A stretch of 61,686 bases of DNA, counting the filler, from Dugesia japonica (Eukaryota), in NCBI GenBank assembly GCA_001938525.1. It is 6 parts of 6 records of this genome, joined end to end, with 100 filler letters (N's around TTAATTAATTAA, not from the genome) between each part and the next. Parts side by side here need not be neighbours in the genome. Positions count along the whole stretch, not along the records: positions 20,957 to 32,308 come from MQRL01602776.1; 5 more parts are not named here. One strand, 5' to 3'. Positions 12,362-49,627 of the stretch are shown in pieces. The notes beneath the pieces were generated by a model, which searched no databases, was not told the DNA's origin, and saw only the letters and a list, made by a program, of their open reading frames with translations. The stretch's first letter is position 1. Each line of letters starts with the position of its first letter. The translations under genes were made by a program, and so were the position numbers.

Positions 12362-12629
12362 TGTGAATTTTTAAATACATATTTTTCTATCAGAACTTGG
12401 TTTTTAATGAATTCTTTAAACCTAAGAAATAATAATTCTAACAAAGTTTACAAGAATATTTGTTTTATTTATCGTTGTATTCAATAGATTTGCAAGGGCT
12501 GTTCCATTTTAATCCAAGGGAACTAAAAGAATAAACAATAATATGTAAAATGATATGAATACGAAAACCAATTTGGATAGTAGCAACACAAATAAAATAT
12601 CAAGACGAAAATTTAGATGAAATCAAATA

Positions 12630-13648
12630 AGTTCTATACTAGTTTCACTAGTTCATCCAAATAATACCGCTAGTAATTACATTGTTGNNNNNNNNNNNNN
12701 NNNNNNNATGGATGGTAGATGGGAAGTTGCCATGATGGATTTCACTTTTGCATATTCACTCATGTCGATTTATAGTCAATCTAAGATTGAATATGAATTA
12801 TTTATACTAATTCATAAGGAAATAATACTCATGTTAACAATAAAGAAAAAAGGTTCTTTTAACTGTTAATTCTCAAGAAAAATATAAAAATAACCGGGAA
12901 ATAGTTATAAAATTATCAAAAGAAAACGTTTTAATTTTTACTACTGATATTACATACCACAGTTTTACTATTTGAAAAGCAGGAAGCAATAAAGAGATTT
13001 TCACGTTTTAACGGTGAAAATGTAAGTTAAGAGAAAACATTAGTTTTTGATGCTAGTAAAAATTTTGGGGATAAAACATTTTTTTCTTGGCTTTCACTAC
13101 TTTAAAGATGACGATTCCATTGAAAAAATAGAAATTAAATATTATTATCCGATTGTAACTAAACATTCTTTTCAATTAGAATCTGAATTGTATATAAAAA
13201 ATTTAAATCAACTAAATGACTATTTTAANNNNNNNNNNNNNNNNNNNNNNNNNNNNNNNNNNTTAAAGCAAGATAAAATATTTCAATTTACATTAGCAAC
13301 TAAATTCGATAAAATCTTAACAAAAACATTAGGATTAAAAGAATCGCAATATAGTCAAATGCAATTAAATGATAAACAACTGCTTATAAAAGTAATAAGA
13401 AACCTAGAATATTAAAGTGTTATCATGAAATGTTCATCCATTGTGGTATTGTCGAACATATAATTGTTGAAGATGTTGAGGTAGTTCAAATTATTGTTGA
13501 TCATCCAATGTATTTACCTATTTCTTCATCATATATAAAAGATATAGAAATTGATATACGTGATGATAGTGGAAAACTAGTCAACTTTGTTGAAGATTCA
13601 AAAGCATATTTAACGTTACATTTTAGAAAAATTAATAATGAACCCTGA
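12630..13648 (+). pseudogene. Maverick minor capsid (penton) remnant
   Basis: N-terminal HPNNTASNYIV and MDGRWEVAMMDF. C-terminus (ORF 13430..13648) reads FIHCGIVEH...HPMYLPI...DIEIDIRDDSGKLVNF...LTLHFRK. Confidence 0.8.
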
Positions 13649-14032
13649 TATTGTATCATTTTATAATACTAGTCAAGCAGGTGGAGAATTACCTTACTTC
13701 ATTGGAAACAGTGTAGCTCTGGGTGATTACAAACAATAGGGAGATTTGCTTTGCCTATTTTTAGACGTATTGGTTCTTTTGGTATGCAAAAAGCTCAGGA
13801 TGTACTGGCTAATGATTGAAAAATACTTGGATTACCTAGTTGAGCTACCAGTATGATTCTAAAAGTAGCAGACATATTACCACAAAGTATAACAAATAAA
13901 ATGTCATCTGAAATAACTAATATGCTAACAAATGAATCTAAAATAGAACCAACTAATAAAAAACGTAAAATATCACATGCATCACGTATAAACAAACGAA
14001 TGAGAGGACATGGGACAATATTTGAAAAATGA
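13638..14032 (+). pseudogene. Maverick small core/membrane-active protein remnant
   Basis: MNPDIVSFYNTSQAGGELPYFIG../..SG*LQTIGRFALPIFRRIG with a basic C-terminus (KKRK..RINKRMRG). Located between penton and MCP; its stop overlaps the MCP start (ATGA). Confidence 0.6.
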
Positions 14033-14850
14033 TTTGCGGTAAAATTGAATTATGTATTTTTGATCGACCATCTTCTCAAGCTGTAATTGAAAATGGTAGT
14101 TTCGAAGATCTTTTCAATGAATTCAATTTCAGAATCACAAAGCAATGTAGAGTTTTTTATAAATGGATCTGAAACAGAATATTTGGATTTAAATGATGCT
14201 TTATTGTATATTAAAGTAAAGTTAGTTGATAAGAATGGTAAAGATTTGACTGATACGGATGATTTGGTTCCTACTAACTATATATTTCATAAACATTTTA
14301 AGGATGTAATTCTTTCGTTTAATAATTTTAAAATTGAAGGTAGAAATGGATCTTATCTTCACAAAGCATTGATTGAAATTATAACAAATTATAATGGTGA
14401 TAGTAAAAATATATGTCTTACATCAATGGGATATGGAGCAGAAGCAGATAGAAAAAGATCTATTGCAAAAATCAAAACAATTGGCTCTATGCGGTTCTTT
14501 GCAACTTGATTTCATGGATCAACCGAAATACTTTATTCTAAGTGTCAATGTCCATATTCGATTGAAACGAACAAGGGGTAATATTTGTTTGGAATCTGCG
14601 ACTAATCAAGCTAAATATGTATTACTAGGTGCAAAATTAATAATTAGAGGAGTATGAGTTGAAACCTCAGTACTAGTTGCCCATAAAATGGGTCTAAAAA
14701 AGCAAAAATGTTGTTTACCCAATAAGAACCAAAGAAAATTGAGATTGGATATAAGTTTGTCAAAGCTTTAACAACATCGTCATATGTTATAATTTATGGA
14801 GTATTTGAAAAAAAATTTAAATTAAAGAAAACTGAACAGTATTAGTGTAA
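14029..14850 (+). pseudogene. Maverick major capsid protein remnant with internal deletion
   Basis: MICGKIELCIFDRPSSQAVIE.., VEFFINGSETEYLDLNDALLYIKVKL, PTNYIFH..FKDV, SYLHKALIE, LQLDFMDQPK, and C-terminal LRLD...YVIIYGVFE. Frameshifted, with an abrupt junction near 14737. Confidence 0.85.
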
Positions 14851-17075: not shown

Positions 17076-17957
17076 TTTTTGATCGGATCAGTTTTTTTGA
17101 TCTGATTATTTTTTTTGATCCTGAAGGTGTGTGTGTGTGTGTGTATTTTTAAATTTTCTTTGTGTTTGGGTTGTTCAGGTGCTTTTCAAAAAGTAGGTTA
17201 ACTTGTGTGTGTGTAAAAGACTGAAAAAAACGAGGAGGAGTAGCTGGAGATCTTGGAGATAATTTTTTTGGATTTCAGTGATGATAAAAAAGTTTGTATC
17301 ATTTTTCAACAATTTATAAGAATTTCAGATAAAATTATTTGACTTCAAGTAAATTAGATATTATTATCTCGCACGTTTTGGAATCATTTGCATTAGATTC
17401 TTCACACTCTTGTTCTTACTTATTATTTTTCTAACTTAAAATAAAGAAACATACTNAGAATGAAGTGAAATCTGATTTGGATAAGAAATAATTGAAAAAG
17501 TATAACTTGTTTATCAATATTTTGTTCTTAATAATGAATTATAATGTAGTGGGGCAACTTAAAACAATTAATTTATTGGATGTATCTGGTTTAATGGTCT
17601 TATATTTAATTATAAAAACCTTTATTTTCACATTGAAACCAATATTGTCTTGTTAAATCCCATATTTTCACGATAAACCCATATATTATTTGTCTTCAGA
17701 CATATTTTTCCATTAAATCTATTTGTTTAATGTTGAATCTAATATTTCTAATGACGAGACCCGTATTTTCAATGTTAAACTCTTATTTTCTAACTATGTT
17801 ACTGATAATTTAGTATTTAAAAGAAAAATAAACCCATGAAAACCAAGGTGCATGCAGGGAACCAAGGCTTATTAACCAAGGAACAAGGAGCAAGCAAAAA
17901 GCAGAAGAACGATCAGATGATAAAAATATACTGAAATAGTCATTTTATTTTAAATAA

Positions 17958-18089
17958 AAAGAGTAATATTTAGAGATAAAAAACAATAAGACTGAGTGAC
18001 AGTGAGTAATAGTTGATATAGCATGCTATATCAACTTTTGCTCACTGTCACTTAGTCTTATTGTCTTTTATCTCGAAATGTTACTCTTT
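17958..18089. repeat. 132-bp near-perfect spacerless palindrome
   Basis: 66-bp arms symmetric about GCA|TGC (18021-18026), with scattered substitutions and no net indel. Confidence 0.9.
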
Positions 18090-19209
18090 AAATATTAAGA
18101 TCCAATAGAAATTAGAGAAAAAACCATAATCGCAAATAACGTATTTGTGGCTAAAATTCAGAATGACTCCACTAGGTATAACCATCATTGGTAGTCCGCG
18201 TTAGAAAGTTTTACAGTTTACTGGTCAGTGGTTTATTTCTTGTTGAGAACTATAGAGCACTGTTTTTCTAACGGTGATTCACGTTAGAAATTTTTTATAG
18301 TTTACTGTTCTACGATGCGTATTTGGTTAAGAAACACGGATTTAGATGAAATTTTTTTACCATTACCTATTGATTTCTCTTTTGTAATTTTAGTAATTTT
18401 ATAATATTTTAAATAAAAAACTCAATAATTTTTTATGTAATTAAATTTAGATTTGTTTTAATTTTGTTCACATTTTAATTAGTTTAAAATTATTGCTTTT
18501 TAATATTTCGATAATTTACNNNNNNNNNNNNNNNNNNNNNNNNNNNNNNNNNNNNNNNNNNNNATTTATTCTTATTTCACATTATCTAATTTTATTTTGT
18601 TATATTTATTGTTGTTTTACTAAAATAGAATACGGTTTATCAGTAAAATACAGAAATGAAATAACGTAACCGGTTATTATAAACAGTAAAACAAAATTTT
18701 ATATTTAAAATCATATTGTGCTGCACAAATAACAAATTGCGAATTGTATGCTAGCTAAAATGATTTTAGATTTTGTAATATAATTTTAGAATTTCATTTA
18801 AAAGTACAATTCCAAGTCATAGTTGATAAATTTGGTTTTGTAATTCTCTTTTTTTCGGTGATTTTATTGAAACTTATATATTGGTTTAATTAAACGATAA
18901 TTTCAATATTCAAGAAGTTTGTAAAATCACAAGAAATTATTTAAACAAAATTTATTGATTAAAACAATAGTTAAATTTTTTTTATGATAACAATAGATTA
19001 TTAATAAAACCAAATCTGTGTATAATGAGCACTGCATATCCTGAACATTTCATATAATGAACAAAATTTAAAAATTTTCAACAATCCTATGGAAAATTTA
19101 TCCATTTTCATTATATTGTTCGTACATTGTGAACAGTAAACACAGTTTTTAATAATTTCATAAAGCAATATATAATTTGTTTTAATTTTATAATTCGTTT
19201 AACTTCGTA

Positions 19210-19680
19210 TAATGAACAATTGAAAAGTAAGAACGAGGACGAATTTAACGTTTCAACAAAACAGAAAATATCAAGTTAAATAAGGAACAGATAAAAAATC
19301 AGAAAATTCTTGCTGTGAAGTATAGAATTTCTGTTGGTCTTGTCAATAAACTATTACATTATGATGGAAAAGCCCGTATTCTAGAAAGGTTGCAAAGAAA
19401 ACGTGATAATTACTTAAGAAAAACAAAGCAAATTGAACCTATTCTGTACCAATGGTTTCAGTATCAACGCTGCAAAAATATTACAATTAGTGATGAAATT
19501 TTAAAGTGTTGGATATATAAAAAAAGCTCAATGTAGAAGATTTCAAAGCGTCAAATGGCTGGCTTAGTTCGTTTTAAAGCAGAAATTATATCTATCAAAA
19601 CAAATTTGTGGAGAGGCAAAAACCATTTAGTCAGATGTCGTTACAAATTTTAAGGAAGAATTGAGTGAAAACTAATAAAA
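19210..19680 (+). pseudogene. pogo/Tigger transposase N-terminal remnant (CENP-B HTH)
   Basis: IEPILYQWFQYQRCKNITISDEILK, then after a frameshift FKASNGWL and ICGEAK. Confidence 0.8.
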
Positions 19681-20170: not shown

Positions 20171-20737
20171 TTGATTACTATATATAGAAAATATTATTTC
20201 TGTAACAAACTGAATTATCATATAAATTATCTAGTTCCGTTGAAACTATTTATAATAAATTCTCAGGAAAAAAATACAACTTCGGAATATATTTCAACTA
20301 TGAAAAATGAATACTACGAAGCAGATTGTTTAATTTTAAATTCCGAAATTACAAAATCAAATCAATTTATTTATTTTGGGATTATATTTATTATTTTAGG
20401 TATAATTCGGTTATTATTAAGCATTGCTTCCATGATAATTAGTAGCATGGGTTCTTTGGTCTGTATAATTTGCGGAATGTTATTAATCACTGCTGGTTTG
20501 ATGAATCTATTCTTTCATAAATTTTCTAATAAATCTTTTTTGATTTCTGATTTTATTTGCGAATGTCTTGCAATTATTTTGCAAGCTGTTTATATCCTTT
20601 TGTTAATTGTATTTTTAACTAAGCTTACTATTAAATTTCATACGTTAATTGCTTTTGAATTATTAACGGGGCTTCTATTAATTTTGATAGTGATTTATCA
20701 TTGTTACTTGTTAAGAAAATATCTTAAAAGGACGTAA
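20171..20737 (+). CDS. Four-TM membrane protein (CD20/MS4A-like topology), host gene; true start probably in an upstream exon
   Basis: Four hydrophobic segments. The track start is TTG. A phase-compatible model is ATG 20070-20151 with an intron GTAAGT..CTAG at 20152-20234. Confidence 0.55.
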   Translation: MITIYRKYYFCNKLNYHINYLVPLKLFIINSQEKNTTSEYISTMKNEYYEADCLILNSEITKSNQFIYFGIIFIILGIIRLLLSIASMIISSMGSLVCIICGMLLITAGLMNLFFHKFSNKSFLISDFICECLAIILQAVYILLLIVFLTKLTIKFHTLIAFELLTGLLLILIVIYHCYLLRKYLKRT

Positions 20738-20856
20738 TTTGATTCATTTATTAATAGAAATGTTATTAATATATACTAATTAGTTAATGTCTATAATAAA
20801 ATTATTTTTTGTTTTTTAGATTATTTTATTCTATTTAATGTAATTTTATATTTTAT

Positions 20857-20956
20857 NNNNNNNNNNNNNNNNNNNNNNNNNNNNNNNNNNNNNNNNNNNN
20901 TTAATTAATTAANNNNNNNNNNNNNNNNNNNNNNNNNNNNNNNNNNNNNNNNNNNN
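20857..20956. other. Artificial contig spacer N44-TTAATTAATTAA-N44
   Basis: Same 100-nt linker; it supplies the false stop of ORF 20905..21981. Confidence 0.95.
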
Positions 20957-21981
20957 ACTTTAAAATCATTCAATCTTTCAAATTTTGGTATATTTTTTAT
21001 TTCCATTGGCATAGTAATTCCTGTCCAATCTAACTTGTTAGTCTCTAGTTTAAATACTTTTTGATAATTAAAAACTGAATCTCCTAAAGAAGGATCAAGA
21101 TGAGCCATTATACAATATTTAAAGCAATTGAAATCATTATTTGGATTTTTAATATTTACAATTTCTGAAATATTATTCCATTCTGATGGTAAAGGAGAAT
21201 AATCTTGTCCAGCTAGCTGACCAACTAAAGANNNNNNNNTAGAAAGTTCAATTGTAAAAGAATTAAACTTTTCAAAAGACCAACCTGATCCTTGAGTCTC
21301 TGTTGTGAAAATATCTTTAGATAATTGATCCAACATGTTATCAATTACATCACTAACCTGATTGGACATTGTTATTTTCTCTGAATGAGTATGATAATCC
21401 TTTATCCAATTTTGATTAGTTGAACTACTTTCACCAACAAAGTCCTTTGTGTATGTAGTTGAACAAGTAATTGAAACTGCAACTTTCTGAAATTTATTCA
21501 AGAACAGATGAACCATTTCTTTCATTTCAGAAGAATAATCTTTTAAGAGATTAAAATTAATTCTATGATTAAATTGATAAATGTTTTCATTAGCTGGTTG
21601 ACTTTCATTTTTATAAATACTGAAATCTCTTTTCAATTTAATCATTGATTTTTGACATGTTTCAATTTCATAATCTCCAACTGGTGGACTATAATCTTTA
21701 AATAAATCTCTAAGATTATTAATTGTTCCAACTGGATTAGGAGTTTCAGCTAACTGAGCTACTTTTTCATTATGTTTACGTCCATTTATATGACTGTTGT
21801 AATTTACCAAGTTGTTAAAGTTAATATTACAAATATGACATCTTCTCCATACATTTCCTGCATTATTTAATTCAACTTTTCTTAAATGTGATCTACCTTT
21901 GAGATGAGTTTCAAAATGATAGAGACTTCTAAAATATTGATTACACAATTTACAATACTTTTCAATTTTAGTAGCACTCAT
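20957..21981 (-). CDS. Protein-primed DNA polymerase B, N-terminal part with two matrin/JAZ-type C2H2 zinc fingers; truncated at contig end
   Basis: CKLC..F..HFETHLKGRSH and CHIC..F..NSHINGRKH, followed by Polinton pPolB N-terminal motifs QGSGW, YSPLP, IVNIKN...CFKYCIMAHL and MPMEIKNIPKFERLN. The catalytic domains lie beyond the contig end. Confidence 0.8.
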
Positions 21982-22034
21982 TTCTTAAAGAAAAGATTTG
22001 GAGATACCGGGGGGGATAGAATTTAAAAAATAAT

Positions 22035-22745
22035 TCATTTTTTTATATTTCCTCCTAAAGGTTGACCAGTCCAGTTCACTGGAATCTGCCCCGCAAGTTG
22101 GTTCATTAATATTGGAAAAGTTTTGGCAAATTGATCTAGTTGTTCAACTAGTTGGTGTTGCAGATTGCCTTGCAGATTGTCATTATCCTTACTGCTAGCC
22201 AGATCTAGAGATTTTTTAACAAGTTGGGACTTGAGATTATTAATTATATCTTTTGAGGTTTTAATTTCTTCATTAGTTAATTCATCATCTTCCAAAGCTT
22301 TTACATGAAAGATGAATAATTTATTTTTAGTTTNNNNNAATAGTTTAATTTTCCAAGTATATTTAATTATCCTACTTCTTATTAAACTAATTCTTAAAGA
22401 TCCATGAGCAATAGAATAAATAATTGGTATTCCAGTTATTACTCCAGTTATTATTATTGGAATTGTAAAAGATAAAGTAGACATTAATATTATAGTTCCT
22501 GAAGCAATTCCTACTATAGTAGAAATTCCTACATCAGTAAATCTAACACCATTGTCAAATCTTGACCATCTTTTTAATAATTTGTTGTAATGATTTAGTT
22601 TATCATCAATCCATTCTAGATCACTTTCAAAATCTCTTATTCTAGTTCTATTTAATTTATTTTTTAAATCTTGAATAGTAAAATCTTGATTGTTTAAATC
22701 ATTATTTAAATCAACAGATAAATCTGGATAAAGTTGGTTAGTCAT
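22035..22745 (-). CDS. Maverick membrane protein with hydrophobic hairpin ('GasderminX'-like)
   Basis: N-terminal LYPDL, a coiled coil, a ~50-aa Gly/Ile-rich double hydrophobic segment, and KALEDDELTNEE resembling the KALxDxxIxxEEF motif of this family. Confidence 0.65.
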   Translation of the reverse strand: MTNQLYPDLSVDLNNDLNNQDFTIQDLKNKLNRTRIRDFESDLEWIDDKLNHYNKLLKRWSRFDNGVRFTDVGISTIVGIASGTIILMSTLSFTIPIIITGVITGIPIIYSIAHGSLRISLIRSRIIKYTWKIKLXXXTKNKLFIFHVKALEDDELTNEEIKTSKDIINNLKSQLVKKSLDLASSKDNDNLQGNLQHQLVEQLDQFAKTFPILMNQLAGQIPVNWTGQPLGGNIKK

Positions 22746-22752
22746 TTTTAAA

Positions 22753-23118
22753 TCAACTATTTTGAATTAACTCTAAAGAAAAATCTACATCTAAATTATT
22801 ATATATTTTTTTAGTTTCTTCTAAATCTGATAATATTTGAAGACTTTCAAAATGAAATTCTTTTTGTATGGTTAATGAAAATTTTTTAAAAATTCTTAAA
22901 TTATGACTTCCTACTCTTATAGGAGAATTAAATAAATTAAGTGAAGTTTTAAATCTTCCTACTTTTTCATTTGTTGGTATATTAGAAAATAAGTAAAATG
23001 GTGGTGAATTATTTAATGATATTAAAAATTTAATATTTTTAATTTCCTTTGTAGTATAACCAGTAATTATAAAATATAAAATTTCATAAGGTTCTCCCAT
23101 TTCAAAATAAAATACCAA
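22753..23118 (-). CDS. Hypothetical Maverick accessory protein (start uncertain)
   Basis: 121-aa ORF co-oriented and tiled between element genes; no recognisable motif. Confidence 0.45.
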   Translation of the reverse strand: MVFYFEMGEPYEILYFIITGYTTKEIKNIKFLISLNNSPPFYLFSNIPTNEKVGRFKTSLNLFNSPIRVGSHNLRIFKKFSLTIQKEFHFESLQILSDLEETKKIYNNLDVDFSLELIQNS

Positions 23119-23226
23119 ATTATTTGTGAAATAAAAATAATTAACTTTATTTATTTTTTCTAGTTTCCCTTTTCTATAAAATGAAATTTTATTTATTTTC
23201 TTGTCAGCTGAACCTTTAACTGTAGA

Positions 23227-23412
23227 TTATATACTTGGTAAATTATCTATTATTATACTTGTTGACAATTTGAATATAATACTTTCTGGAAGTATATTAT
23301 CATTAATTGAAAAATAATTATTAGTAATGTCAATTAACTCTTCCATCAGTTTTTTATTATAAATTTCTTTCTTTTGTTTTTGTATGTCTAATTTAATAAT
23401 TAATTCTTCCAT
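23227..23412 (-). CDS. Hypothetical small Maverick protein (may extend upstream)
   Basis: 61-aa co-oriented ORF within the element. Confidence 0.35.
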   Translation of the reverse strand: MEELIIKLDIQKQKKEIYNKKLMEELIDITNNYFSINDNILPESIIFKLSTSIIIDNLPSI

Positions 23413-23510
23413 GTATTTTAAATCATAATGATTAGTAATTTTTTTTATCTTATTTATTATTTCGGGTAAAGGATCATTTTTAGTTTGAACATAATATTCA
23501 AATTCATTTT

Positions 23511-23996
23511 TTAATTTATCAACTTGTTACATTTTTCTTCACTACATTTACTTGTTGAATCTTTAATTTGTTTTTCTAAATCTTCAAGTTTTTTCTCTTT
23601 ATTATTAAAAGCATCTCTATAAAAATTTTTAAGTTGAGTAAAATTTTCAAGTTGACTCAACATTTCACTTTTTANATTTATAAATTCTTTTTTACTTTCG
23701 CTTAAATGTAATTTATTACTTTCTAGTAAAGTATCTATAGTAACTTGTTGTTTAAGAATTTGTCCAGTAAACTTGTTACTAAGAATTTGTCCAAATTTTT
23801 GGATTTCTTTTTTAACCACGTTATTAACATAATCTCTATCATCATATTTTTTATTTTTAACTTCTTCTTCACGTTCATGTATTTTTAATTTGGTATTAAT
23901 TTTACTTTCTACTTTTTCATCAAAGTTTTCTATTAATTGATTCTCTAGTGTTTCTCCAAATCTATTCATTATTACATTTGAAAAACTATGAGTCAT
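23511..23996 (-). CDS. Hypothetical coiled-coil Maverick protein
   Basis: 161 aa, K/E-rich, ATG start directly downstream of the protease gene. Confidence 0.6.
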   Translation of the reverse strand: MTHSFSNVIMNRFGETLENQLIENFDEKVESKINTKLKIHEREEEVKNKKYDDRDYVNNVVKKEIQKFGQILSNKFTGQILKQQVTIDTLLESNKLHLSESKKEFINXKSEMLSQLENFTQLKNFYRDAFNNKEKKLEDLEKQIKDSTSKCSEEKCNKLIN

Positions 23997-24026
23997 TTCT
24001 TAATGGTAATTTTTAATGGTAATTTC

Positions 24027-24518
24027 TTAAAGCCATTCTTTAAAGGTATTTTTTAATTCATTAATTATTTCTTCAAATCGTCCATCCCAACTAGTTGATA
24101 AAGAACCTTCCTTATTATTCATTCTATAAATAAAATAAATACACAAGATTCCACAAATCTCAGTTTTCCAAGGTTGAACTTGAATCTTGTTGTATACAAC
24201 CTTATTTTTACCTTTAATAATAGAATCCAAAGGAGGTAAACCATAAGAATCAAAATAATATCCAGCCCAACTAGTTGGTTGCTGGCCTTTATTATCTGTT
24301 TGAACATAAGCAACCCAATGACTTCCTTTTTGATTAGAGTTTTGATAGTTTATTATCCAGTTTCCAACTAGTTGGAATGGATTAAATTCATCCTTCATCA
24401 CTATATAAACATTTAAATTTAAAAAATTAGCAATATTCATTAAATCAAAATTAGTTGTAGTTGATGTACCAAATGTTTTGAGAAAATCTAGAATTGTCCA
24501 ACTAGTTGACCAACTCAT
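24027..24518 (-). CDS. Adenain-like cysteine (maturation) protease
   Basis: IINYQNSNQKGSHWVAY (His), YYFDSYGLPP (Asp), QVQ....ICGILCIYFI (Gln/Cys). Confidence 0.93.
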   Translation of the reverse strand: MSWSTSWTILDFLKTFGTSTTTNFDLMNIANFLNLNVYIVMKDEFNPFQLVGNWIINYQNSNQKGSHWVAYVQTDNKGQQPTSWAGYYFDSYGLPPLDSIIKGKNKVVYNKIQVQPWKTEICGILCIYFIYRMNNKEGSLSTSWDGRFEEIINELKNTFKEWL

Positions 24519-24539
24519 TTTCTAACCAAGTTTATTGAC

Positions 24540-25301
24540 TTAATCAACTTGTCTCAANTGTAATAGGATATTAATCTTTTCTCCATCAAAATCTATTGTA
24601 TTAAAATTCTCGTCTACTATATTTAATTTTATTCTAGATATGAAATCTGTATTAATTTCTGAATAAATTGGATTAGCTGGTCTATCAGTTATCCTATATC
24701 CATAAGGAACTGTACCCATTGGTAAACTATGTAGTAAATTGTATTCTATATCATTTATATAATTACCTTGTACAATGTTGCAAATAATATTAATTGTATT
24801 TATATCAATAATATTAATTTTATTTTCAGAAATGAATTTAAAGTTTCCTGTACCATCATTAGATCCATTGATTAAATAACCATTTGGTAAAACATTAAAT
24901 CCTAAAATAGTATGAAAAAAAGAAGTATTATCAAATTCTAGCTTTAACTTTTCTTGAATGTTAATATCCTTGTTAATATCCTTGTTAATATCTTTTAAAT
25001 TCTTACTTTCAGGAATTAGAAAAGTTAATAATGCTCTACCTGATGATATATCAAAAGTTAAAAGTAAATTTTCTATTATCAACTTTTCTGCAATCTGTTT
25101 AATTTCATAAGCTCCAGGAGTTAGTGTTTTTTCTTTATCATTAATTTTAAATTTATTATTTTTATTATTAACATTTAAAATCATGTTGGATGTAGTAAAC
25201 CAAATTAAACCAATTTCCCAATCTCCTTCTAGTTTTAAACCATTTGATAAATTAGTTTTCAATTCATGTTCTTGACCAAATAATAAAAATTGATGAGACA
25301 T
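24540..25301 (-). CDS. Minor capsid protein (penton)
   Basis: LEGDWEIGL, PGAYEI, INIICNIVQGNY, PYGYRITDRPANPIY, IVDENFNTIDFDGE. First ATG is at 25301 (MSHQF); the track start at 25340 is TTG. Confidence 0.88.
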   Translation of the reverse strand: MSHQFLLFGQEHELKTNLSNGLKLEGDWEIGLIWFTTSNMILNVNNKNNKFKINDKEKTLTPGAYEIKQIAEKLIIENLLLTFDISSGRALLTFLIPESKNLKDINKDINKDINIQEKLKLEFDNTSFFHTILGFNVLPNGYLINGSNDGTGNFKFISENKINIIDINTINIICNIVQGNYINDIEYNLLHSLPMGTVPYGYRITDRPANPIYSEINTDFISRIKLNIVDENFNTIDFDGEKINILLXLRQVD

Positions 25302-25395
25302 AACCGAGCGAACGAAGTGAGTGAGGTTTCTATAAAGCAATTTATTATAGATTTTATTTTAACCTTGTTTCAAACTAGATGTAAAAAGCACTCGC

Positions 25396-26319
25396 TTATT
25401 CCAAGTATTTATCTTTTAACCTATTATACTTTTCACTAGTTATTAATCTATTGTCCAATAGTTTATTAATTATTTTATTAAAATCATTTTCAAGATTATC
25501 ATGTCCAGCTTTTATTGCACTAGTTATTTTAACAAACTTTTCCAACAACTTTATTGGATTTCCATTAGGATTTTCAATAGGATTTTCAATACCACTTCCA
25601 ATAGGTTTAATAGTATTAATTTCTTTATATTCAGGAGGATTTTTTAATTTTTTAAATTCTTCATCAAATATTCCATTTTTCTTACATGCTCTAATATATT
25701 TACTAGAAGATGGAGTAACAAAATTAAAGCTAGTTAAATAAATATTTTTAGCATTATCATCATTAGATCCATAACCAAACATTAACTTTAATACTTCTTG
25801 ATTAAAAGGTATTTCTTTCCCACTACCAGATTTATCATCTATAAAAAAATAATATTCTAATTCTCCGTTAACTAATCTTCGTTTTAAATAAATAAAATCT
25901 GAACCTATTTTAAAAGAATCAAAAGTTTTTTCCTGAGTAATTGGATCCTCATTATAAAAAATATAAGGAATCAAAGTAGGAGGTAAATCATATTTATTAC
26001 TAACTTCTAAATCTTCTTTTTTTATTGTTAATTTATCATCCTTTATATCTCCAGTAGGCTGTACTCCAGTAGGTTGACCAGCAGGTTGTTGAGGATTAAT
26101 TAAAGATTGTAATAAATTACCCTGAGGATTTAAGCCACTTGTTAAGCCACTTGTTAAGGCGCTTGTTAAACCACTTGTTAAGGCGCTTGTTAAACCAAGA
26201 TTAAGAGAAGGAAACTGAGATCTAAAATAAACTTGTTCTACTATTAATTTATTATATTTCTCTCTTCCACTAATTTGATCTTTTAAACTTTTTATTCTAT
26301 CATCAATCCAATCAGTCAT
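25396..26319 (-). CDS. Maverick protein of unknown function with low-complexity insert
   Basis: 307 aa. C-terminus IGSG...LLEKF....IKAGHDNLENDFNKIINKLL resembles a helical motif recurrent in Mavericks; LTSG/LTSA tandem repeats. Confidence 0.7.
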   Translation of the reverse strand: MTDWIDDRIKSLKDQISGREKYNKLIVEQVYFRSQFPSLNLGLTSALTSGLTSALTSGLTSGLNPQGNLLQSLINPQQPAGQPTGVQPTGDIKDDKLTIKKEDLEVSNKYDLPPTLIPYIFYNEDPITQEKTFDSFKIGSDFIYLKRRLVNGELEYYFFIDDKSGSGKEIPFNQEVLKLMFGYGSNDDNAKNIYLTSFNFVTPSSSKYIRACKKNGIFDEEFKKLKNPPEYKEINTIKPIGSGIENPIENPNGNPIKLLEKFVKITSAIKAGHDNLENDFNKIINKLLDNRLITSEKYNRLKDKYLE

Positions 26320-26357
26320 TTTGTTTAAAATATATTTAGTATTCCTTATCTAGATCC

Positions 26358-26963
26358 TTATCTAGATCCCTTCCATGGATTCAAATATAATCCCTTACCA
26401 CTTGGTATAATTTCTATTCCTTTTTTAAATTTCTTTTTATTAATTACTTTTAATGGTAAACCTTGACTTTTTAAATATTTATGAATAGCAGATCCTTGAT
26501 AAGGATTTAAATATATTCCAGTTCCAGTATACTGGGGTGGATCCGACTGTTGCTGCTGAGCAGCTGGCTGCTAGACAGCATGCTGCTGTTTTAATTGTCT
26601 TAATTGTTCTTCAAACAATTTATTCCTTTTCTGAACACCAATAGCTTCTCTTGAATTTGAAACTAATTTAGCTACACCTGCTGCTGCTCCCGCAACACCT
26701 CCTGCTACGCCTGTAACTGTTGCAATAGTAGGAGCAGCTGCACTTACAGCTGAACCTATTCCTGCCAAAATACCAGGTATTAAAGCCAATAAAGGAAATA
26801 CTCCACCTTGTGTCGTGCGAACTCCATCCTCATACTTTTGTTTTAATATTTCTTTAGTCTTTTTACCTATCCAATAATTTTTACCATTTATTTTTATTGA
26901 TTTGGATTTTTCACTATTTATTAAATCTATTAATTCTTTTTCAGTTGTGTTACTGTTAACCAT
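26358..26963 (-). CDS. Adenovirus pX-like core/membrane-active precursor, 201 codons with one in-frame TAG (26571-26573)
   Basis: QGGVFPLLALIPGILAGIG resembles the pX segment GGFLPALIPIIAAAIG. The frame stays open for 70 codons after the TAG, with GTGIYLNPY and GKGLYLNPW, to TAA at 26358-26360. Confidence 0.7.
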
Positions 26964-27074
26964 TTTATTTAACCGAGCGAAGCGAGGTTTCTATTTTTAT
27001 ATATAATAATTTAGTATTAACATAATTTAGATTCCAACTAGTTGGATAGATACCAAGGCCGCTTCGCGGCCAGG

Positions 27075-27963
27075 CTAAAACAAGGAATCCATCAAAACTT
27101 CTTGTTCCTTGTCTAGATAAAAATAATTATGTTTAGTTTTCCAATGGTGATTGGTTTCAAAGTCGTATTCTTCTTTATTATTAAAAATGTTACTAAATAA
27201 ATCATGATAGACATTATCTTTATCTCTTTTACCCAATTTAAAGAAAATAAAACAATTTCTATTATTTCTTATACTATTTTTATCCAAATCATAATATGTT
27301 TGAGATATATAAATTACATTGCAATTATTATGNNNNNNNNNNNNNNNNNNNNNNNNNNNNNNNNNNNNNNNNNNNNNNNNNNTTTTTATCCAAATCATAA
27401 TATGTTTGAGATATATAAATTACATTGCAATTATTATGTCTTCCTCTAGTAAAGTAGGATTTCTGTATTGATTGGTTTTTCTCATTTACTACATCATCAA
27501 AGATTATTAAATTCTTTTTATTTTTAGGTAACTTGTCACATGGTACAATATCACTTGATTTACTCGAAATTGAAATTGAAATCAACTCATCTGTCTGATT
27601 ACTGCTTAACTGGTTACTGCTGCCCAGCAAACTGCAATACCAAAAGATGATTTCTTGTGGATTTAAATCTTTGGGAATTCTATCTTGTACTTCATCTGAA
27701 AAAATATTCATTTAATCTTGTTTACTTAATCCTTGAGTAAATCCATGATATAATAATTGAATTTCAAATTGATTAATAGTAGTTGAAAATAAAATAAAAT
27801 TATTATAGTCTATAAAACTTGGTGTTAATAATATTTTTAATAACAAAACATTTTTACCACATCCAGATGAACCAATAATTAAACATCTGAATTGAGGAGG
27901 AAATATTTTATGTTGAAATTTACTTGCACTATTTTTCCATATAGGCAATATTCCACTTGCCAT
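27075..27963 (-). pseudogene. A32/FtsK-type packaging ATPase with one in-frame TAA and an assembly duplication
   Basis: Walker A IIGSSGCGKN (N in place of T/S), Walker B LIIFDD, RGRH...ISQTYY, SIRNN. In-frame TAA at 27712-27714. HNNCNVIYISQTYYDLDK is repeated on both sides of the gap at 27333-27382. Confidence 0.9.
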
Positions 27964-27967
27964 TTTA

Positions 27968-29347
27968 TTATAAATTAGTTGGACTTAACTCATTAGAATA
28001 AAATCTACCTAGTATTTCATCTCCTTCTTCATCTACAATTCCATAAGTTAATACTCCATCCCATGGTTGAGATGTGTTATTTTCTCTATAGATTTTGTAT
28101 ATTGTAAAAATACTTTTAGACCAATTTGTTGTATAACCTTTTTTAAATGTTCCTTTAAATCTAAAAATCCTAACTCTATCACCAATCTTTAATTTTTTGT
28201 TACCAAGATTCCATTTAACTGTTTTCTTATCTAGTTTAGTTAACTGTAATTCTGTAGGATTACTAGCATGTTCAGGAGTAATTCCAATTGAACTGTGAAT
28301 TGTATTATTATAATCATCAACTATAGAATTTAACAAATCTATATCCCATTTTTGATTACCCTGTTTAGTAAAAATTTTGTATAATCTTCTTTTAAATGTT
28401 CTAATTACTCGCTNTACAAAAACTGCTTTACCTTGAAGTTCTGTATTTAATGAAGTAGAATATAAATTAATATTATTATCATCACAAAACTCTTGAAAAA
28501 CTTTATTATAAAATTCTCTTCCATGATCTACCCATAAATTATTAGGAATACGATTACTTTTTTCTATTATATTTTCTAATCCTTCTTTTACTTCTTGTCC
28601 AGTTTTGTTTTCTAATACTTCTATAAATAAAAATCTAGTAAATAAATCAATCACTATTAATACAGGGGTCATGACTGTTCCAGTTGACTGTCTGTTTTTA
28701 GTTGAAGACTTAAACCCTTTGGGATTTCCTAAAAACATTAAATCAGCTGACCAAGTTTCATCTTTAAAGAATAATTTTACTTTGAGAAAGTGTTTATTTT
28801 TTTTGAAAGGTTTATGTAATTCATCAACTAGTTTATCAACAGCTCTAGTCTTTAGTCCAGCTCCCAATATTATCTTACCCTTCATAGCTAATTTAACTAT
28901 TCCTCTTTGAATCTTTTCAGTTATAGTTGGATTTTCTATATTATTTAAATCATGAATCATGTTTACATCAGCAATATGTCTATCTCTAACATCTTCACTA
29001 ATGTATGCTATATCATGTTTTAGAGCAGATTGATCAACTCTATTTACTGGTTCTTCCCCTGGTTTTGGTTGCATATAATTTGAATCATTAGGATCTTGTT
29101 CCAAACGAAGATCCAGTCTAGTTCCTGGTCCAGTGTAATTATGACCAAATAAATGCCTTTCACCTGGATACTTTTCTGTAGTAAAAGGTCTTAGTAAAGC
29201 ACTTGTTACTTTGGAAGATTGTAGATCTCCACCTTGTCTCGATTGGTCACCTCCGGCTCCCAGTTTTTTTAAACATCTTTTTTCATGTCTTAACATATTC
29301 GACTTGGTTAAATATCTATTACATCTTAAACACAATTCTTTAGTCAT
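27968..29347 (-). CDS. Zn finger / parvovirus-type PLA2 / rve integrase fusion protein
   Basis: CLRC..HEKRC finger; GHNYTGPGT and DQSALKHDIAY (PLA2); WSADL, IDLFTRF, LWVDHGREFYN, VXRVIRTFK, YNNTIHSSIGITP, IGDRVRI..FKKGYTTNWS (Maverick integrase). No chromodomain. Confidence 0.93.
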   Translation of the reverse strand: MTKELCLRCNRYLTKSNMLRHEKRCLKKLGAGGDQSRQGGDLQSSKVTSALLRPFTTEKYPGERHLFGHNYTGPGTRLDLRLEQDPNDSNYMQPKPGEEPVNRVDQSALKHDIAYISEDVRDRHIADVNMIHDLNNIENPTITEKIQRGIVKLAMKGKIILGAGLKTRAVDKLVDELHKPFKKNKHFLKVKLFFKDETWSADLMFLGNPKGFKSSTKNRQSTGTVMTPVLIVIDLFTRFLFIEVLENKTGQEVKEGLENIIEKSNRIPNNLWVDHGREFYNKVFQEFCDDNNINLYSTSLNTELQGKAVFVXRVIRTFKRRLYKIFTKQGNQKWDIDLLNSIVDDYNNTIHSSIGITPEHASNPTELQLTKLDKKTVKWNLGNKKLKIGDRVRIFRFKGTFKKGYTTNWSKSIFTIYKIYRENNTSQPWDGVLTYGIVDEEGDEILGRFYSNELSPTNL

Positions 29348-29369
29348 TTTTTTAATATTTAATTTTAAC

Positions 29370-30668
29370 TTACTTATTAGCTGGTGTTAACCCTGGTATT
29401 GTTGGTAATTTCATAGCTTTGAGATCTTGTCCTTTAATATTCTCTACAAACATTACTTTACCATTTGAAATTTTCAATTCTACATGCTTTTCTTGAAGTA
29501 TTAACCAATATAAATTACCACTTAATTCACTATCTTTGGTTATATGACATGTTAAATCTACATTATTTACAGTTAGTTTTTCCTCTTGAGCAGAGCAATC
29601 AAAACAGAATATTGGATAAAAACCTAACCAATCTTTAATACTTAGTTGAGGTTTTATTGCAAAAGCATTACACATTTCAACATACATTTGATATGGATAC
29701 ATTACTTGATTATTATTTACATCAAACTCCACTCTAGCATTTGGGTAATAAGTATTGTTTAGTTGTAATTGAATACTTTTTAGATAATAATTAAATGTCT
29801 TTTCTTCTTCTTTACCAGCTACATTTACCTTTTTAGTAACATTTTGTTTTATAGCAAATAAATTATTATTATTTTTATACGAATTATTATTATATTTAAA
29901 TCCTACTATAACAAATCTAGGTCTATATGGTAAATTACTCATTTTAATTGAAAAGCTAGTTCCTGTAGTTATTGAACAATTACCCATTTCTCTTTCCAAG
30001 AATGAAGATTGAATAGGTTTACCTTATGATAATCTTTCTAAATAACTAAATTCACTCTTGGGAGCTAAAGTCCATTCAGGAATAAGTAATTCAAGTGCAT
30101 CAATTTGAATTTCTACTTTATCATCTGTAGTTCCAAAGAATATTTTTTCATTCATTATCTCTCTATTNNNNNNNNNNNNNNNNNNNNNNNNNNNNNNNNN
30201 NNNNNNNNNNNNNNNNNNNNNNNNNNNNNNNNNNNNNNNNNNNNNNNNNNNNNNNNNNNNNNNNNNNNNNNNNNNNNNNNNNNNNNNNNNNNNNNNNNNN
30301 NNNNNNNNNNNNNNNNNNNNNNNNNNNNNNNTAGCTTTATCTACTAAAATTAAATTAATCATTGTAGAAGCTACATCTGGAAATGTTATTGACTCAATAT
30401 AAGTCAATCCTATTTTTAATCTCATTTGTGAGAATAAAGCTGGAAAGAAATCATTTTCCAATACAGTTGTTGGTTTTGGATTCTTGAAACTTATTCTAAA
30501 ATACATTTTTGCATTTCCTATATCCAAAGGATTAGTATTTTGTAGTGATTGAAATGAAACATCACCATTCTTGTTTAAATTAACTATCGATCCAGCTGTT
30601 GGAGAAATTTTCAACAAATCAGTTTTAGTTTGGTTGTGAATAAAGTCAATGTTAAAATCTAGATCCAT
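29370..30668 (-). pseudogene. Major capsid protein (double jelly-roll) with one in-frame TAA and an N gap
   Basis: ORFs 30024..30668 and 29370..29999 are in frame (LERLS*GKPIQSSFLEREM). Motifs: ALFSQMRLKIG, RPRFVIVGF, LQLNNTYYP, PIFCFDCSAQEE. Confidence 0.85.
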
Positions 30669-30680
30669 TTATTTAGAATT

Positions 30681-31007
30681 TCATTTTACCTTACCTAAAT
30701 ATGAATCCAAATCTTTACCAGTAATGTATTTAAAAGCCTTTTTCACCCATTTAATTATTTTAACTCTATTAAAGTAAATTATAGTTAACATTACAATTCC
30801 AATCAAGAAAAAAATAATAAACTTGTAAACTCTAATTTTTCCCTTTAAATCTACTATTGTTTTTTGATATTTTTTTTTATTTTCTTTTCTTAATAATTTT
30901 TCCATCTCCACACTTGTATTACTTGTTGTACTTGTTGTACTTGTATTACTTGTTATAGCTAAATCACTCAATATCTCCTCCTCCTTCTTTACAACTTCCT
31001 TTTCCAT
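30681..31007 (-). CDS. Small single-pass membrane protein of the Maverick
   Basis: 108 aa with S/T repeats, one TM (FIIFFLIGIVMLTIIYF) and a basic amphipathic tail; ends 12 nt before the MCP start. Confidence 0.65.
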   Translation of the reverse strand: MEKEVVKKEEEILSDLAITSNTSTTSTTSNTSVEMEKLLRKENKKKYQKTIVDLKGKIRVYKFIIFFLIGIVMLTIIYFNRVKIIKWVKKAFKYITGKDLDSYLGKVK

Positions 31008-32308
31008 TTCTTATAGACATAATTTAAGAAATATTGTTAAAGAACCTTGTTAAAGAAATCCTGATCATTTTTCAAACTATCTTTAATATATTTTTCATTT
31101 TTATCTTTAATTTTTTTAACTTGAGAAGTATAATATTTTTTTCTATTATCATCTTTTATTATATGCAATTCTATCATATTATTTAATTCTTCTTCATAAT
31201 TATAATTCACCCTTTTCTTAATTCACTAGAAGTTTTACTAGAAGTTGTACTAGAAGTTGTATTACTTCTTTCATATACTTCTTTATAAACTCTATAACTT
31301 AAATATAAATTTTTAAAGGTTTCTAAACTAATTGATTCCCCACTTTGTTCACTGTTTTTCTTTAATATTATTTTTAAATTTTCTTCTACGTCTAGCCTGT
31401 TTACAGAATCGTACTTCGTCGATTGTCAAATCTTCTAAAGACTCCGCTCGGAGTTCTTTTCTTTCTTGATCGGATTCTTCCATTGCACTTGAATCTTCAC
31501 TGCTGGATGTAATTTCGTCTGAATTGGTATCACTATCAATTTGTATTCGGCTTCCAGCTACACTTGTCATCCCCATATCATACTCATTATCTTTATCTTC
31601 TCTTCGTTTCTTAGGTGATGACGCATCATTCTCAATATTTAATTCTTAATCAAGGTCAATGCCACTGCACTTAGATCTTTTAGTATTGTTGTTTTGGTTT
31701 ACATTAGGTTTTGTTTGTTGGTCTGTAAGAGACTTAATTTTGTCCTTGGATTAATTGATTTCATTTTTATCTTTTTTCTTTAATGCTACTGGCCAGTAAA
31801 AAGCTGTAAGATGTAATTCCTCTCGTGGTGGTATTGAGGCGATGGGTTCTAGCGTATCCATTTTTGGTGTGAGGTTATGATCTTCCGTGGGTTTTATGGT
31901 GTCATCTTATAAGTTTGTTTTTTTAAGATGAATGAAGGCTTGTCGTATCCATTCAATTCTGTTGTTGGTAGTAGGCATTACTGTATGGTTCATTGACCAA
32001 ATCATATTTCGTATTTGGGGTTGAAATTGTACAGGTTTTAATATTGCTCCTATAACCGTATTCATCCGGTGTCTTGTGGTATTTGAATTTCTAACTAGAT
32101 TTTGATGCTATTTTCTTTTGACCAGATCTTTATAACCGATAATTTTATTTTATTATAATTTTATTTTATAAATCATAACCGATTATTATTTTTCATACAG
32201 CATTTGTCTAGCTTGTGTAATTATTGGATATGCGTCTTCCTTACCGATGAGTAGTTTTTCGTCATATCCCACTGTATCTGTATAATAATGTTTCACCCTT
32301 TCTCTATG

Positions 32309-32408
32309 NNNNNNNNNNNNNNNNNNNNNNNNNNNNNNNNNNNNNNNNNNNNTTAATTAATTAANNNNNNNNNNNNNNNNNNNNNNNNNNNNNNNNNNNN
32401 NNNNNNNN
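32309..32408. other. Artificial contig spacer N44-TTAATTAATTAA-N44
   Basis: Same 100-nt linker. Confidence 0.95.
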
Positions 32409-32431
32409 ATAATAATAATAATAATAATAAC

Positions 32432-32466
<35 letters not shown>

Positions 32467-40961: not shown

Positions 40962-42158
40962 TTAACTATTTATACTTCGAACTCGAGCGATATATTGTGA
41001 TGAAACTTTGCCGACTTGTAGATGGTTTTTATTTCGATGATAACCTTTATGCTTCGCAGTTGAATACAAACANTTAAATATATATTTCACACAATATTTA
41101 AATTTTGTGGATATAAGCAAAGAACAAAATGGATTAATCGATGAATTGAGATAACACATAAATTGGGAAATCGGTGTTAAAGTTTCTACCATGAAATTAT
41201 CGTATTTACGATTATTAGTTTCAGCAATATTGATTTTCATGACCACATCATTGTAAATACAACGAATATGATGCGGTAACCAACAAATTAGAAAAATCAA
41301 ACAAAGCATTATCAGAATTACCGACAATTTCTTTCTGCGATTTGAATAATCTACACTTCTTACAGAATTCGTGATCTCTTTCGGTGTTTTCCAAAGTTTA
41401 GATATCAAAATAAAATGAAGAATCAACATAGAAAACAATGGAATTAAATATAAAACAAAGAATGATAGAAAGGTGTAAATCATTTTATATTTTTGATTAC
41501 CAAACCAAGTTTCTTTACATTGATTTGTGTTGTTTGACATATCCATATGAACTACTTCACTAGCCATTCCTAATGGTAAACTTAGAAAAACACTCAACAA
41601 CCATATCGATAAAAGCCAGATTTTGATTTTTGAATTTTTAAAAATCACTTTATATTTCATTGGGAACATGATAACGTAAAATCTTTCAAAGCTGATGCTC
41701 ATTAATGATAAAACACTTACATGAACAGTTGTTGACTGTAAACCAGATTGAAATTGGCAGAAAAACGGATTGAACTTATACACCAAATTCACTTGATTAT
41801 ATAAAGTCAATGGAGCTGTTATTATTAAAACAAGCATATCACTGATTGCCAAATTTAGTAAGAATATATTCGCAAAATTTCTCATAAACTGAAATAATAA
41901 TACACTGATAATTACCAGAAAATTCCCGATAATACCAACACAAATCGACAATGAAAATATCAATTGTAATACAATAGAAAATGAGTTTTTATTATTACCA
42001 AGAAATGAAACCAATTTATCTTTTATACATATCGAAAATGAGTCGGTACCCGGAGATAAGTTTTCTTCAACACACATATTAAACCATTTTGTTTCTGTAT
42101 CACTATAGTTTGTTACTAATTGTAATATATTACTGGATTTTGTTGAATGTTTAAACAT
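40962..42158 (-). CDS. Class A (rhodopsin-like) neuropeptide GPCR, intronless
   Basis: Seven TMs: GNFLVI, NLAISD, C..SISFERF (DRY position), W..S...P, YLIP, FLICWLP, NSSINPF. Resembles the orexin/allatotropin/CCK-type peptide receptors; subfamily not assignable. Confidence 0.92.
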   Translation of the reverse strand: MFKHSTKSSNILQLVTNYSDTETKWFNMCVEENLSPGTDSFSICIKDKLVSFLGNNKNSFSIVLQLIFSLSICVGIIGNFLVIISVLLFQFMRNFANIFLLNLAISDMLVLIITAPLTLYNQVNLVYKFNPFFCQFQSGLQSTTVHVSVLSLMSISFERFYVIMFPMKYKVIFKNSKIKIWLLSIWLLSVFLSLPLGMASEVVHMDMSNNTNQCKETWFGNQKYKMIYTFLSFFVLYLIPLFSMLILHFILISKLWKTPKEITNSVRSVDYSNRRKKLSVILIMLCLIFLICWLPHHIRCIYNDVVMKINIAETNNRKYDNFMVETLTPISQFMCYLNSSINPFCSLLISTKFKYCVKYIFXCLYSTAKHKGYHRNKNHLQVGKVSSQYIARVRSINS

Positions 42159-49235: not shown

Positions 49236-49300
49236 GATGCAGTGTAGTGAGTGCGAGGTTAAAGCAGTTTCCGTATTGAGGTTACCGTGTGGGCACGTAG
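49236..49300 (+). pseudogene. Half of an IAP/MDM2-type RING finger at the end of a decayed ORF (48871 onward)
   Basis: MMQCSECEVKAVSVLRLPCGHVA. Confidence 0.5.
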
Positions 49301-49627
49301 CAGTATAACTCTACTATGATACCTTACATAGCTTTCTCTCATCTAAAATGCAATCTAGAAATGAAAAAAGGAAGATTCTTCTTGCCTCAGGAAAAAATGA
49401 TCCTCACCATCTAGATGTTTATTACTCTTCTGATATTGCTAAATGCAAATACTCTTCAAAAAATAAGAAAATCTGTGGCTCACTTTTCAAGAATGCTATG
49501 TATGAAGAANTAATTATTAATTAATAATTTCACCTAATAGAAATTGAGTTATATAAATATTAATATTGAAATGCTTGCATTTCNATATTAATTATATTAT
49601 GAAACTTGGTGTGTAGTAGTAAAATAA

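Follow-up and report, generated by a model that had tools for sequence, protein, structure and literature searches.

A damaged Maverick-Polinton copy with a fused PLA2–integrase gene, probably a silent passenger in the genome of the planarian Dugesia japonica

The window analysed here, 61,686 nucleotides of Dugesia japonica DNA (GenBank assembly GCA_001938525.1), is composed of six scaffolds of 8.5–12.3 kb each, joined by five identical 100-bp N-linkers. One of these scaffolds (MQRL01602776.1; 11,352 bp, positions 20957–32308) is filled nearly completely by a single element, which we read with good confidence as a group-2/Alpha-adintovirus-type, PLA2-bearing Maverick-Polinton: a damaged, partly assembled copy of a highly repeated planarian family, which likely sits silently in the chromosome instead of replicating as a virus. 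Observed directly were the domains of capsid, ATPase, integrase and PLA2, the four in-frame stops, divergent related contigs in their thousands and near-zero RNA in two runs. Adintoviruses, Mavericks and Polintons are treated as the same group, in which PLA2 is common in group 2 (10.64898/2026.06.19.733378, in part). An earlier note on this DNA, made from the sequence alone, had proposed an adintovirus- or Polinton-type endogenous element, and this is borne out, the morphogenetic gene set being complete. The map of open reading frames (ORFs) also agrees with the gene order and the single strand given there. On the minus strand follow a transmembrane (TM) orphan, the major capsid protein (MCP), a fused zinc finger (ZnF)-PLA2-integrase, the ATPase, a pX-like protein, a 307-aa protein, the penton, the protease, orphans, a hairpin protein and ZnF-pPolB, with gaps of only 4–126 bp, and coding sequence takes up 9,510 of 10,054 bases (Table 1).

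Structure prediction of the MCP, which the earlier note had proposed, yielded a double-jelly-roll (DJR) fold (pLDDT 73.7, folded with X at the stop and the gap). It matches the PBCV-1 capsid protein (E 3.6e-9; Z 19.7, rmsd 3.1, 298 aligned residues) as well as the MCPs of iridovirus, Sputnik and mavirus, with Z 16–19.7 across all of these including PBCV-1. By sequence, seven matches were found (best 43%), none came from a search of the MCP profile against PDB sequences, and a scan of viral contigs returned a single contig that was already among the known relatives. Homologs of the packaging ATPase occur in 38 of 81 related loci; its Walker A motif departs from the relatives at one position, and the gene contains a 50-nt assembly gap with a falsely duplicated flank. 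The penton candidate belongs to a conserved gene of about 250 aa without a Pfam match (25% identity to the gene of locus L001, E 4e-15), and its name is our assumption from gene position and a motif. For the protease, the Pfam Peptidase_C5 match is weak (E 0.03, under the curated cut-off), and visible His/Asp/Gln/Cys motifs are what we take to be its catalytic residues. Within this gene, at 24260–24308, about 45 bases are skipped or replaced in many related contigs, which points to an insertion or a variable loop in this copy's protease. Residues 148–338 of pPolB align with residues 151–342 of the 1,293-aa polymerase of L001 (26%, E 7e-15), and the N-terminus finds matches in 10 of the 81 loci. 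The part after its zinc fingers is likely a terminal-protein domain, followed, by comparison with 10.1101/2024.03.18.585575, by what is probably the start of a vOTU domain. The closest polymerase relatives carry Endonuclease VII, and the two complete relatives scanned had no PF03175 match at E<=0.01.

A G-protein-coupled receptor (GPCR) gene on another scaffold of the window, 79% identical to S. mediterranea GCR328, points to a dugesiid planarian as host, probably of a species other than S. mediterranea. Part of the stretch is contained in 15 of 24 listed sequencing runs; seven runs from three studies (2014–2025, one species label) share 22–38% of its words, and one of these seven may be the source of the assembly. 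No RNA run stood among those containing it, which says nothing for or against transcription, and shares below 0.1 were left out of account. Four of the 24 runs, the DNA runs X1 and X2 and two oligo-dT RNA runs, were aligned to the scaffold at a contig identity of at least 88%. From X1, 10,766 of 10.0 million contigs fell on the scaffold, 1,250 of them at an identity of at least 99%, 2,882 at 95–99%, 5,305 at 90–95% and 1,329 below 90%; X2 gave 10,625 of 10.2 million with a similar profile (1,163 at 99% or more). With thousands of divergent related contigs, the element fits a family of very many copies. The RNA-seq check suggested in the earlier note was run on the two oligo-dT runs (about a quarter of each) and gave near-zero transcripts and no sign of transcription there: 79 of 13.6 million and 92 of 11.6 million records matched, of which 68 and 92 were partial and often of low complexity. 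Such a family would have spread through the genome in bursts and would be held down by PIWI/piRNA silencing, like the Polintons of Schmidtea. In S. mediterranea, Polintons are silenced by PIWI/piRNA (PMC8532177, in part), and the silence of the present family is likely mediated by piRNA as well.

The copy itself is broken by four in-frame stops (Table 1). The three in MCP, ATPase and pX-like gene, already seen in the earlier note, are confirmed, with homology running on past each of them, and a fourth lies in an orphan gene. Under a uniform model that presumes the stops to be real, four stops in 3,089 sense codons correspond to about 0.7% substitution (95% range 0.2–1.9%). With so little decay the copy is fairly young, and the note's "young insertion" is a fair description. 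Its statement that there are no frameshifts holds for the visible sequence, since N gaps (164 nt in MCP, 50 nt in ATPase) and an ambiguous base conceal parts of hallmark genes; frameshift-like remnants lie at 31040–31425. Because MCP and ATPase are interrupted, this copy alone would be unable to make capsids or package DNA. At the MCP stop codon every aligned contig differs (25 in X1, 27 in X2), so the lesion is either private to this copy or an assembly error.

These observations bear on whether the family still forms infectious planarian particles, with the present copy as an inactive insertion left recently by an active virus. The decay of only about 0.7%, the 1,250 and 1,163 contigs that are at least 99% alike, and a full morphogenetic module with conserved PLA2 catalytic residues and an MCP stop absent from other contigs would suit such a virus, and Spodoptera adintovirus DNA co-purifying with particles is cited as unpublished work in PMC8502044 (in part). 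We nevertheless consider it unlikely, given the near-zero transcripts in two RNA runs and related contigs that are mostly 90–95% alike, unlike a clonal infection. The earlier note had favoured virion entry and egress over pure transposition; the complete morphogenetic set accords with this, but a large, transcriptionally quiet chromosomal family fits at least as well.

The note's description of the element as near-complete does not hold. About 10.4 kb is present against an expected 15–17 kb, roughly 60–65% of the element, as two relatives bounded by terminal inverted repeats (TIRs) measure 15.6 and 16.9 kb. At the left scaffold end (20957) pPolB breaks off after 341 aa, compared with about 1,300 aa in relatives, so that about three quarters of it is lost. 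At the opposite side, two overlapping remnants look, from their reading frames, like one frameshifted gene. The CpG-poor composition stops inside this decayed ORF, between 31300 and 31390 (zero CpG in 30589–31388, then 11 in 31389–31622), which suggests truncation or insertion and not a natural terminus; the tail beyond is likely flanking or inserted DNA. Inverted repeats between 20802–20956 and 32309–32463 were considered as TIRs and rejected as N-linker artefacts.

Could the scaffold stem from contamination, or from many copies collapsed into one mosaic, and not from a real planarian locus? The element fills nearly the whole 11.35-kb scaffold, which has several N gaps and a false duplication, a CpG content unlike that of the other scaffolds, and no contig among those listed that spans it. 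Against this stand its presence under one species label in three studies between 2014 and 2025, pieces of 199–393 bp with 0–1 differences in both DNA runs and, as to a contaminant, nonsense mutations in essential genes, which are unlike a free virus. We regard this explanation as very improbable, although the assembly may be mosaic in part.

The gene that sets the element apart from its described relatives joins ZnF, PLA2 and an rve integrase in one protein, without a chromodomain. Its integrase frame is open, although an ambiguous base (28414) falls in the codon of the nearly invariant third catalytic position, and the PLA2 catalytic H/D/Y are invariant in 37 of 37 aligned sequences. A search with the fusion protein gave 200 matches (best 48%); among the best 120, 50 carry PLA2 together with integrase, 49 of them with HDxxY. 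In a midpoint-rooted tree of the 95 integrases that had 200 or more aligned residues, the element falls in a clade of 40 (support 0.915), of which 34 other members are fused. Across the 81 related loci, PLA2 is fused in 28, in an adjacent ORF in 24, further apart in one and without a match in 28, often short loci. Judged from these sequences, the PLA2–integrase fusion marks a widespread clade.

GG/GxG motifs bracket the PLA2 domain, occurring at its two flanks in 28 of 36 and 30 of 37 aligned relatives compared with a background of 0.4–0.6% of integrase-core windows, where the aligned rows are the top integrase matches and kinship among them inflates the counts. Comparable motifs are also found in the pX-like and 307-aa proteins. 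In mavirus, the protease cleaves at GG|X and GX|G and the integrase is present in virions (PMC6048507, in part); for the lipases of Polintons, packaging and a role in entry have been proposed (PMC4642659, in part). On these three grounds, the conserved flanks, the mavirus precedent for cleavage and integrase packaging, and the proposed packaging of lipases, the ZnF-PLA2-integrase may be a virion-packaged polyprotein matured by the element's own protease, a reading to which we give an even chance. The linear DNA of an intact member would be replicated by the protein-primed polymerase and integrated via the rve integrase, and the ATPase could package it into MCP/penton capsids. The adenain-like protease would cut ZnF-PLA2-integrase at the motifs flanking PLA2, and a single gene would thus deliver both an endosome-escape lipase and an integrase. 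The mechanism described for the family consists of replication by protein priming, integration by rve and a virion module of jelly-roll type (PMC8502044, PMC4028283 and 10.1101/2024.03.18.585575, each in part).

Alternatively, the element may be a purely intracellular, self-synthesising transposon, with capsid module and PLA2 as ancestral baggage and the fusion as a neutral, unprocessed read-through. Massive intragenomic amplification and the Maverick expansion in Dugesia suit this view, as do broken capsid and ATPase genes beside an open integrase frame and the existence of both fused and split PLA2/integrase forms. We find it rather unlikely all the same, since 49 of 50 fused relatives retain HDxxY and the flanking motifs persist across 35–56% identity, and since the summed depth is no lower over capsid and ATPase than over integrase, which indicates that the module is retained family-wide.

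Several points weigh against a chromosomal family whose intact members package the fusion protein. The GG/GxG motifs could be mere flexible linkers, and common descent gives relatives shared motifs in any case. The fusion is not required for the lifestyle, because PLA2 and integrase are separate overlapping ORFs in both TIR-bounded relatives. The summed contig depth, which runs into the thousands over the core genes (depth 4–6 for exact-match pieces), is not a copy number and may include free forms or sibling families. The RNA comparison covered two of seven raw runs, about a quarter of each, both oligo-dT. An inverted-repeat search found no TIR within the stretch, where one end of the element lies beyond the assembly and the other looks truncated, and the scaffold sequence shows neither a host–element junction nor a target-site duplication. 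Finally, as its catalytic domain is missing, the class of the polymerase is given by N-terminal similarity only.

The element is strongly depleted in CpG. It has 38 CpG against 166 expected (observed/expected, o/e, 0.23), whereas the five other scaffolds, the tail and the GPCR gene of the window lie between 0.80 and 1.08. When the protein sequence and codon usage are kept constant, CpG at codon junctions is at 9 against 33.6 expected (z −4.7), the strongest deviation of 16 dinucleotides; CpA is in excess there (z +3.7) and TpG is not (z +0.9). A CpG o/e of at most 0.4 is found in only three of 63 related loci above 2 kb (L045, L063 and L066), two of which are very AT-rich. For S. mediterranea, 5-methylcytosine (5mC) is reported as not detectable (PMC3824064, in part). 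The deficit could be explained by a past in a methylating host, or else by a mutational or selective bias specific to the element. We also entertain, as a doubtful proposal, that the element represents an unnamed, widespread group-2 clade with a ZnF|PLA2|integrase polyprotein, a member of which came horizontally as a virion from a CpG-methylating host and was amplified to hundreds of copies, some perhaps still making particles. Such a host jump would account for the CpG deficit (o/e 0.23) and the surplus of CpA in animals whose lineage is reported to be without 5mC.

Among the closest known systems are the Alpha adintoviruses with a Mayetiola-class virion module (PMC8502044; group 2 of the Polintoviricetes in 10.64898/2026.06.19.733378; both in part). 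They share the DJR hexon, FtsK/A32 ATPase, adenain and rve integrase, the parvovirus-like PLA2 and an animal host, and probably also the penton, the OTU-type pPolB N-terminus and a pX-like segment; their published maps show a gene labelled SLATT (PMC8502044, in part). PLA2 marks the Mayetiola-class virion modules (ibid.). In the Alpha adintoviruses PLA2 is joined to pX as PLA2X (ibid.), whereas here its partner is the integrase and a separate gene encodes the pX-like protein, which makes PLA2X in the strict sense less likely but leaves the module class unaffected. The element also differs in an integrase without chromodomain, C2H2 fingers before pPolB and the placement of all genes on one strand. 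No flatworm name occurs in the portion of the PMC8502044 supplement that was searched. Group 1 or Beta adintoviruses (Terrapene-class) are set apart by GasderminX and Cupiennin without PLA2, and the element has PLA2. The Spodoptera frugiperda Mavericks 1 and 2 (PMC5803895, in part) share the PLA2 gene, integrase, A32 ATPase and protease, and their pPolB is of the Endonuclease VII type, as in the element's closest polymerase relatives, but their PLA2 is a separate ORF and their integrase has a chromodomain. Mavirus (PMC6048507, in part) shares the DJR capsid, rve integrase and clan-CE protease and supplies the precedent for cleavage at GG|X and GX|G and for integrase packaging; as a protist virophage dependent on a giant virus, with 8% capsid identity in the fold match, it offers an analogy and not membership.

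Two metagenomic relatives bounded by TIRs, L002 (15.6 kb) and L001/L082 (16.9 kb), share the core gene set including the hairpin gene, with PLA2 directly upstream of the integrase. They differ in using both strands, in gene order, in having PLA2 and integrase as separate overlapping ORFs, and in an MCP only 17–19% identical. L002 1–15597 and L082 1–16929 are themselves apparently complete group-2-type Polintons from viral contigs, with TIRs of 123 bp and about 1.1 kb. The gene order of the element matches none of the seven distinct loci of at least 10 kb, all of which use both strands, the other 74 of 81 being too short for the whole order. Partial matches are MCP followed by PLA2-integrase in L018 and pX-protease-hairpin in L004, and the core genes recur among related loci in other orders.

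Planarian Polintons or Mavericks in print, from S. mediterranea (PMC8532177, in part) and Dugesia (10.64898/2025.12.11.693146, in part), share the host group, the abundant repeats and the silenced state. In the available portions of both papers they are treated as transposon classes without annotation of gene content or capsid. A clear Maverick expansion is reported in Dugesia genomes (10.64898/2025.12.11.693146, in part). The earlier note's suggestion of an undescribed lineage is possible for the sequence (best MCP match 43%, best integrase match 48%) and for the PLA2–integrase architecture; it stands beside the published planarian Polintons and Dugesia expansion, and Repbase was outside the comparison. 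Neither a capsid-annotated planarian Polinton nor a description of the PLA2–integrase fusion was found in a literature search outside which lay Repbase, most subscription papers and key supplements, which may contain a description of the fusion. The available portions of PMC3671162, PMC6431247 and PMC12455919 made no decisive addition. A single broken Polinton copy by itself is ordinary, such elements being known across animals; the present one is a new sequence within the established Maverick-Polinton group, from an amplified planarian family.

A full capsid module is thus present in at least one abundantly repeated Maverick family of planarians. The fusion with its protease-type flanking motifs provides a concrete model of how a Polinton integrase could enter particles and reach a new nucleus, and the CpG deficit may record a host jump. 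Animal Polinton virions have never been observed, according to 10.64898/2026.06.19.733378 (in part). Planarians are a tractable host and, if the host-jump and polyprotein proposals were true, would offer a laboratory system for whether animal Polintons form virions.

Table 1. Features of the element scaffold and the artificial linkers (positions along the window)
Feature	Position	Strand	Basis and remarks
pPolB N-terminus, 341 aa	20957..21981	-	two C2H2 fingers first (zf-met E 1e-11); catalytic part beyond scaffold end
Hairpin protein, 236 aa, helical	22035..22745	-	hydrophobic tip aa 69-115; conserved accessory gene
Orphan gene split by stop	22753..23412	-	stop 23227-23229; same frame either side
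Charged, coiled-coil-like orphan, 161 aa	23511..23996	-	no significant family or relative
Adenain-like (C5/Ulp1 clan) maturation protease	24027..24518	-	open frame; homologs in 24/81 loci
Penton (minor capsid protein), candidate	24540..25301	-	homologs in 15/81 loci
307-aa protein	25396..26319	-	internal 12-bp repeat; weak relatives in two loci (E 0.003, 0.016)
pX-like core protein	26358..26963	-	GG-x-FPLL hydrophobic stretch, then GxG-x-YLxP motifs; stop 26571-26573
A32/FtsK-like packaging ATPase	27075..27963	-	Pox_A32 PF04665 E 2.5e-8; stop 27712-27714; gap 27333-27382
ZnF-PLA2-rve integrase fusion, 459 aa	27968..29347	-	PF08398 E 4e-8 and rve PF00665 E 7e-10 in one ORF
Double-jelly-roll MCP	29370..30668	-	PF21738 E 9e-10; stop 30024-30026; 164-nt N gap 30168-30331
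Single-pass membrane orphan (TM), 108 aa	30681..31007	-	hydrophobic aa 56-85; no Pfam match at cut-off
Two overlapping ORF remnants, differing frames	31040..31425	-	upstream of TM gene; no TIR
Tail of differing composition	31389..32308	none	CpG o/e ~0.9; decayed ORFs; moderate repetition; lower depth; no Pfam match
Artificial linker N44-TTAATTAATTAA-N44	20857..20956	none	sequence past linker is not genuine flank of element
Linkers N44-TTAATTAATTAA-N44, all five	starts 12262, 20857, 32309, 43236, 52374		artificial; produce false repeats and false neighbours

The accessory genes are less uniform than the core. Depth is far lower over the regions 22852–23609 and 30811–31189, which are therefore read as subfamily-specific. 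The three orphans listed in the earlier note are probably two, since a stop splits one gene in the same frame; at this codon one contig per DNA run differs. The TM orphan has no relative in the 81 loci, and the 307-aa protein has no Atlas match. The pX-like protein resembles a gene of L004 (E 1e-8) in an alignment that spans its stop, and is hydrophobic at aa 52–98. Its label is presumptive, the protein itself giving no Adeno_PX match in the Pfam scan.

The hairpin protein has 1,122 relatives at E<=0.001, and a hydrophobic span of at least 35 aa is present in 132 of the 150 relatives listed. Its model is all-helical (pLDDT 85.6), and its best fold matches are unnamed iridovirus proteins (E 5.6e-5), with SLATT-annotated viral proteins reaching only E 0.13–0.5; in the family, SLATT_1 matched one of 136 members (E 0.002). 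This gene may correspond to the one that published maps of adintoviruses label SLATT. A wide fold search found nothing more specific than helical bundles (best Z 9.5), and we therefore refrain from assigning the protein to the gasdermins, colicins or BAR proteins. No gasdermin chain is among the fold matches listed, and in the Atlas the N-terminal part has only sub-threshold, unnamed matches (0.80–0.81). The rich membrane-active toolkit that the earlier note described is thus overstated: only PLA2 has an assignable activity, the other candidates are hydrophobic segments, and membrane-active accessory proteins, in three classes, have already been described as standard in adintoviruses (PMC8502044, in part).

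Several further observations concern the other scaffolds of the window. A second, badly decayed Maverick remnant lies at 12362–14760 (plus strand; CpG o/e 0.71), with integrase-, penton-, small-gene- and hexon-like pieces interrupted by frameshifts. By tblastn it shows no similarity to the main element, its MCP profile match is weak (probability 18%), and its gene order is reminiscent of the Beta/group-1 module. A 150-bp imperfect palindrome at 17949–18098, with 75-nt arms that are 87% complementary and no spacer, is possibly a miniature inverted-repeat transposable element. On the scaffold neighbouring the element, and outside it, 20300–20737 (plus) encodes a 145-aa multi-pass membrane ORF without a Pfam match. 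A decayed remnant resembling a long-terminal-repeat retrotransposon lies at about 48800–52000 (plus), with a reverse transcriptase fragment at 51510–51884 (RVT_1 E 1.6e-10). Short ORF remnants at 19249–19536 (plus), 47320–47942 (minus) and 58802–59095 (plus) are presumably CENP-B/Tigger-like and hAT-like DNA-transposon pieces, judging by their motifs. The GPCR gene mentioned above (40962–42200, minus) is a single-exon member of the rhodopsin family (7tm_1 E 6e-47), 79% identical to S. mediterranea GCR328, its sole match at E<=1e-30.

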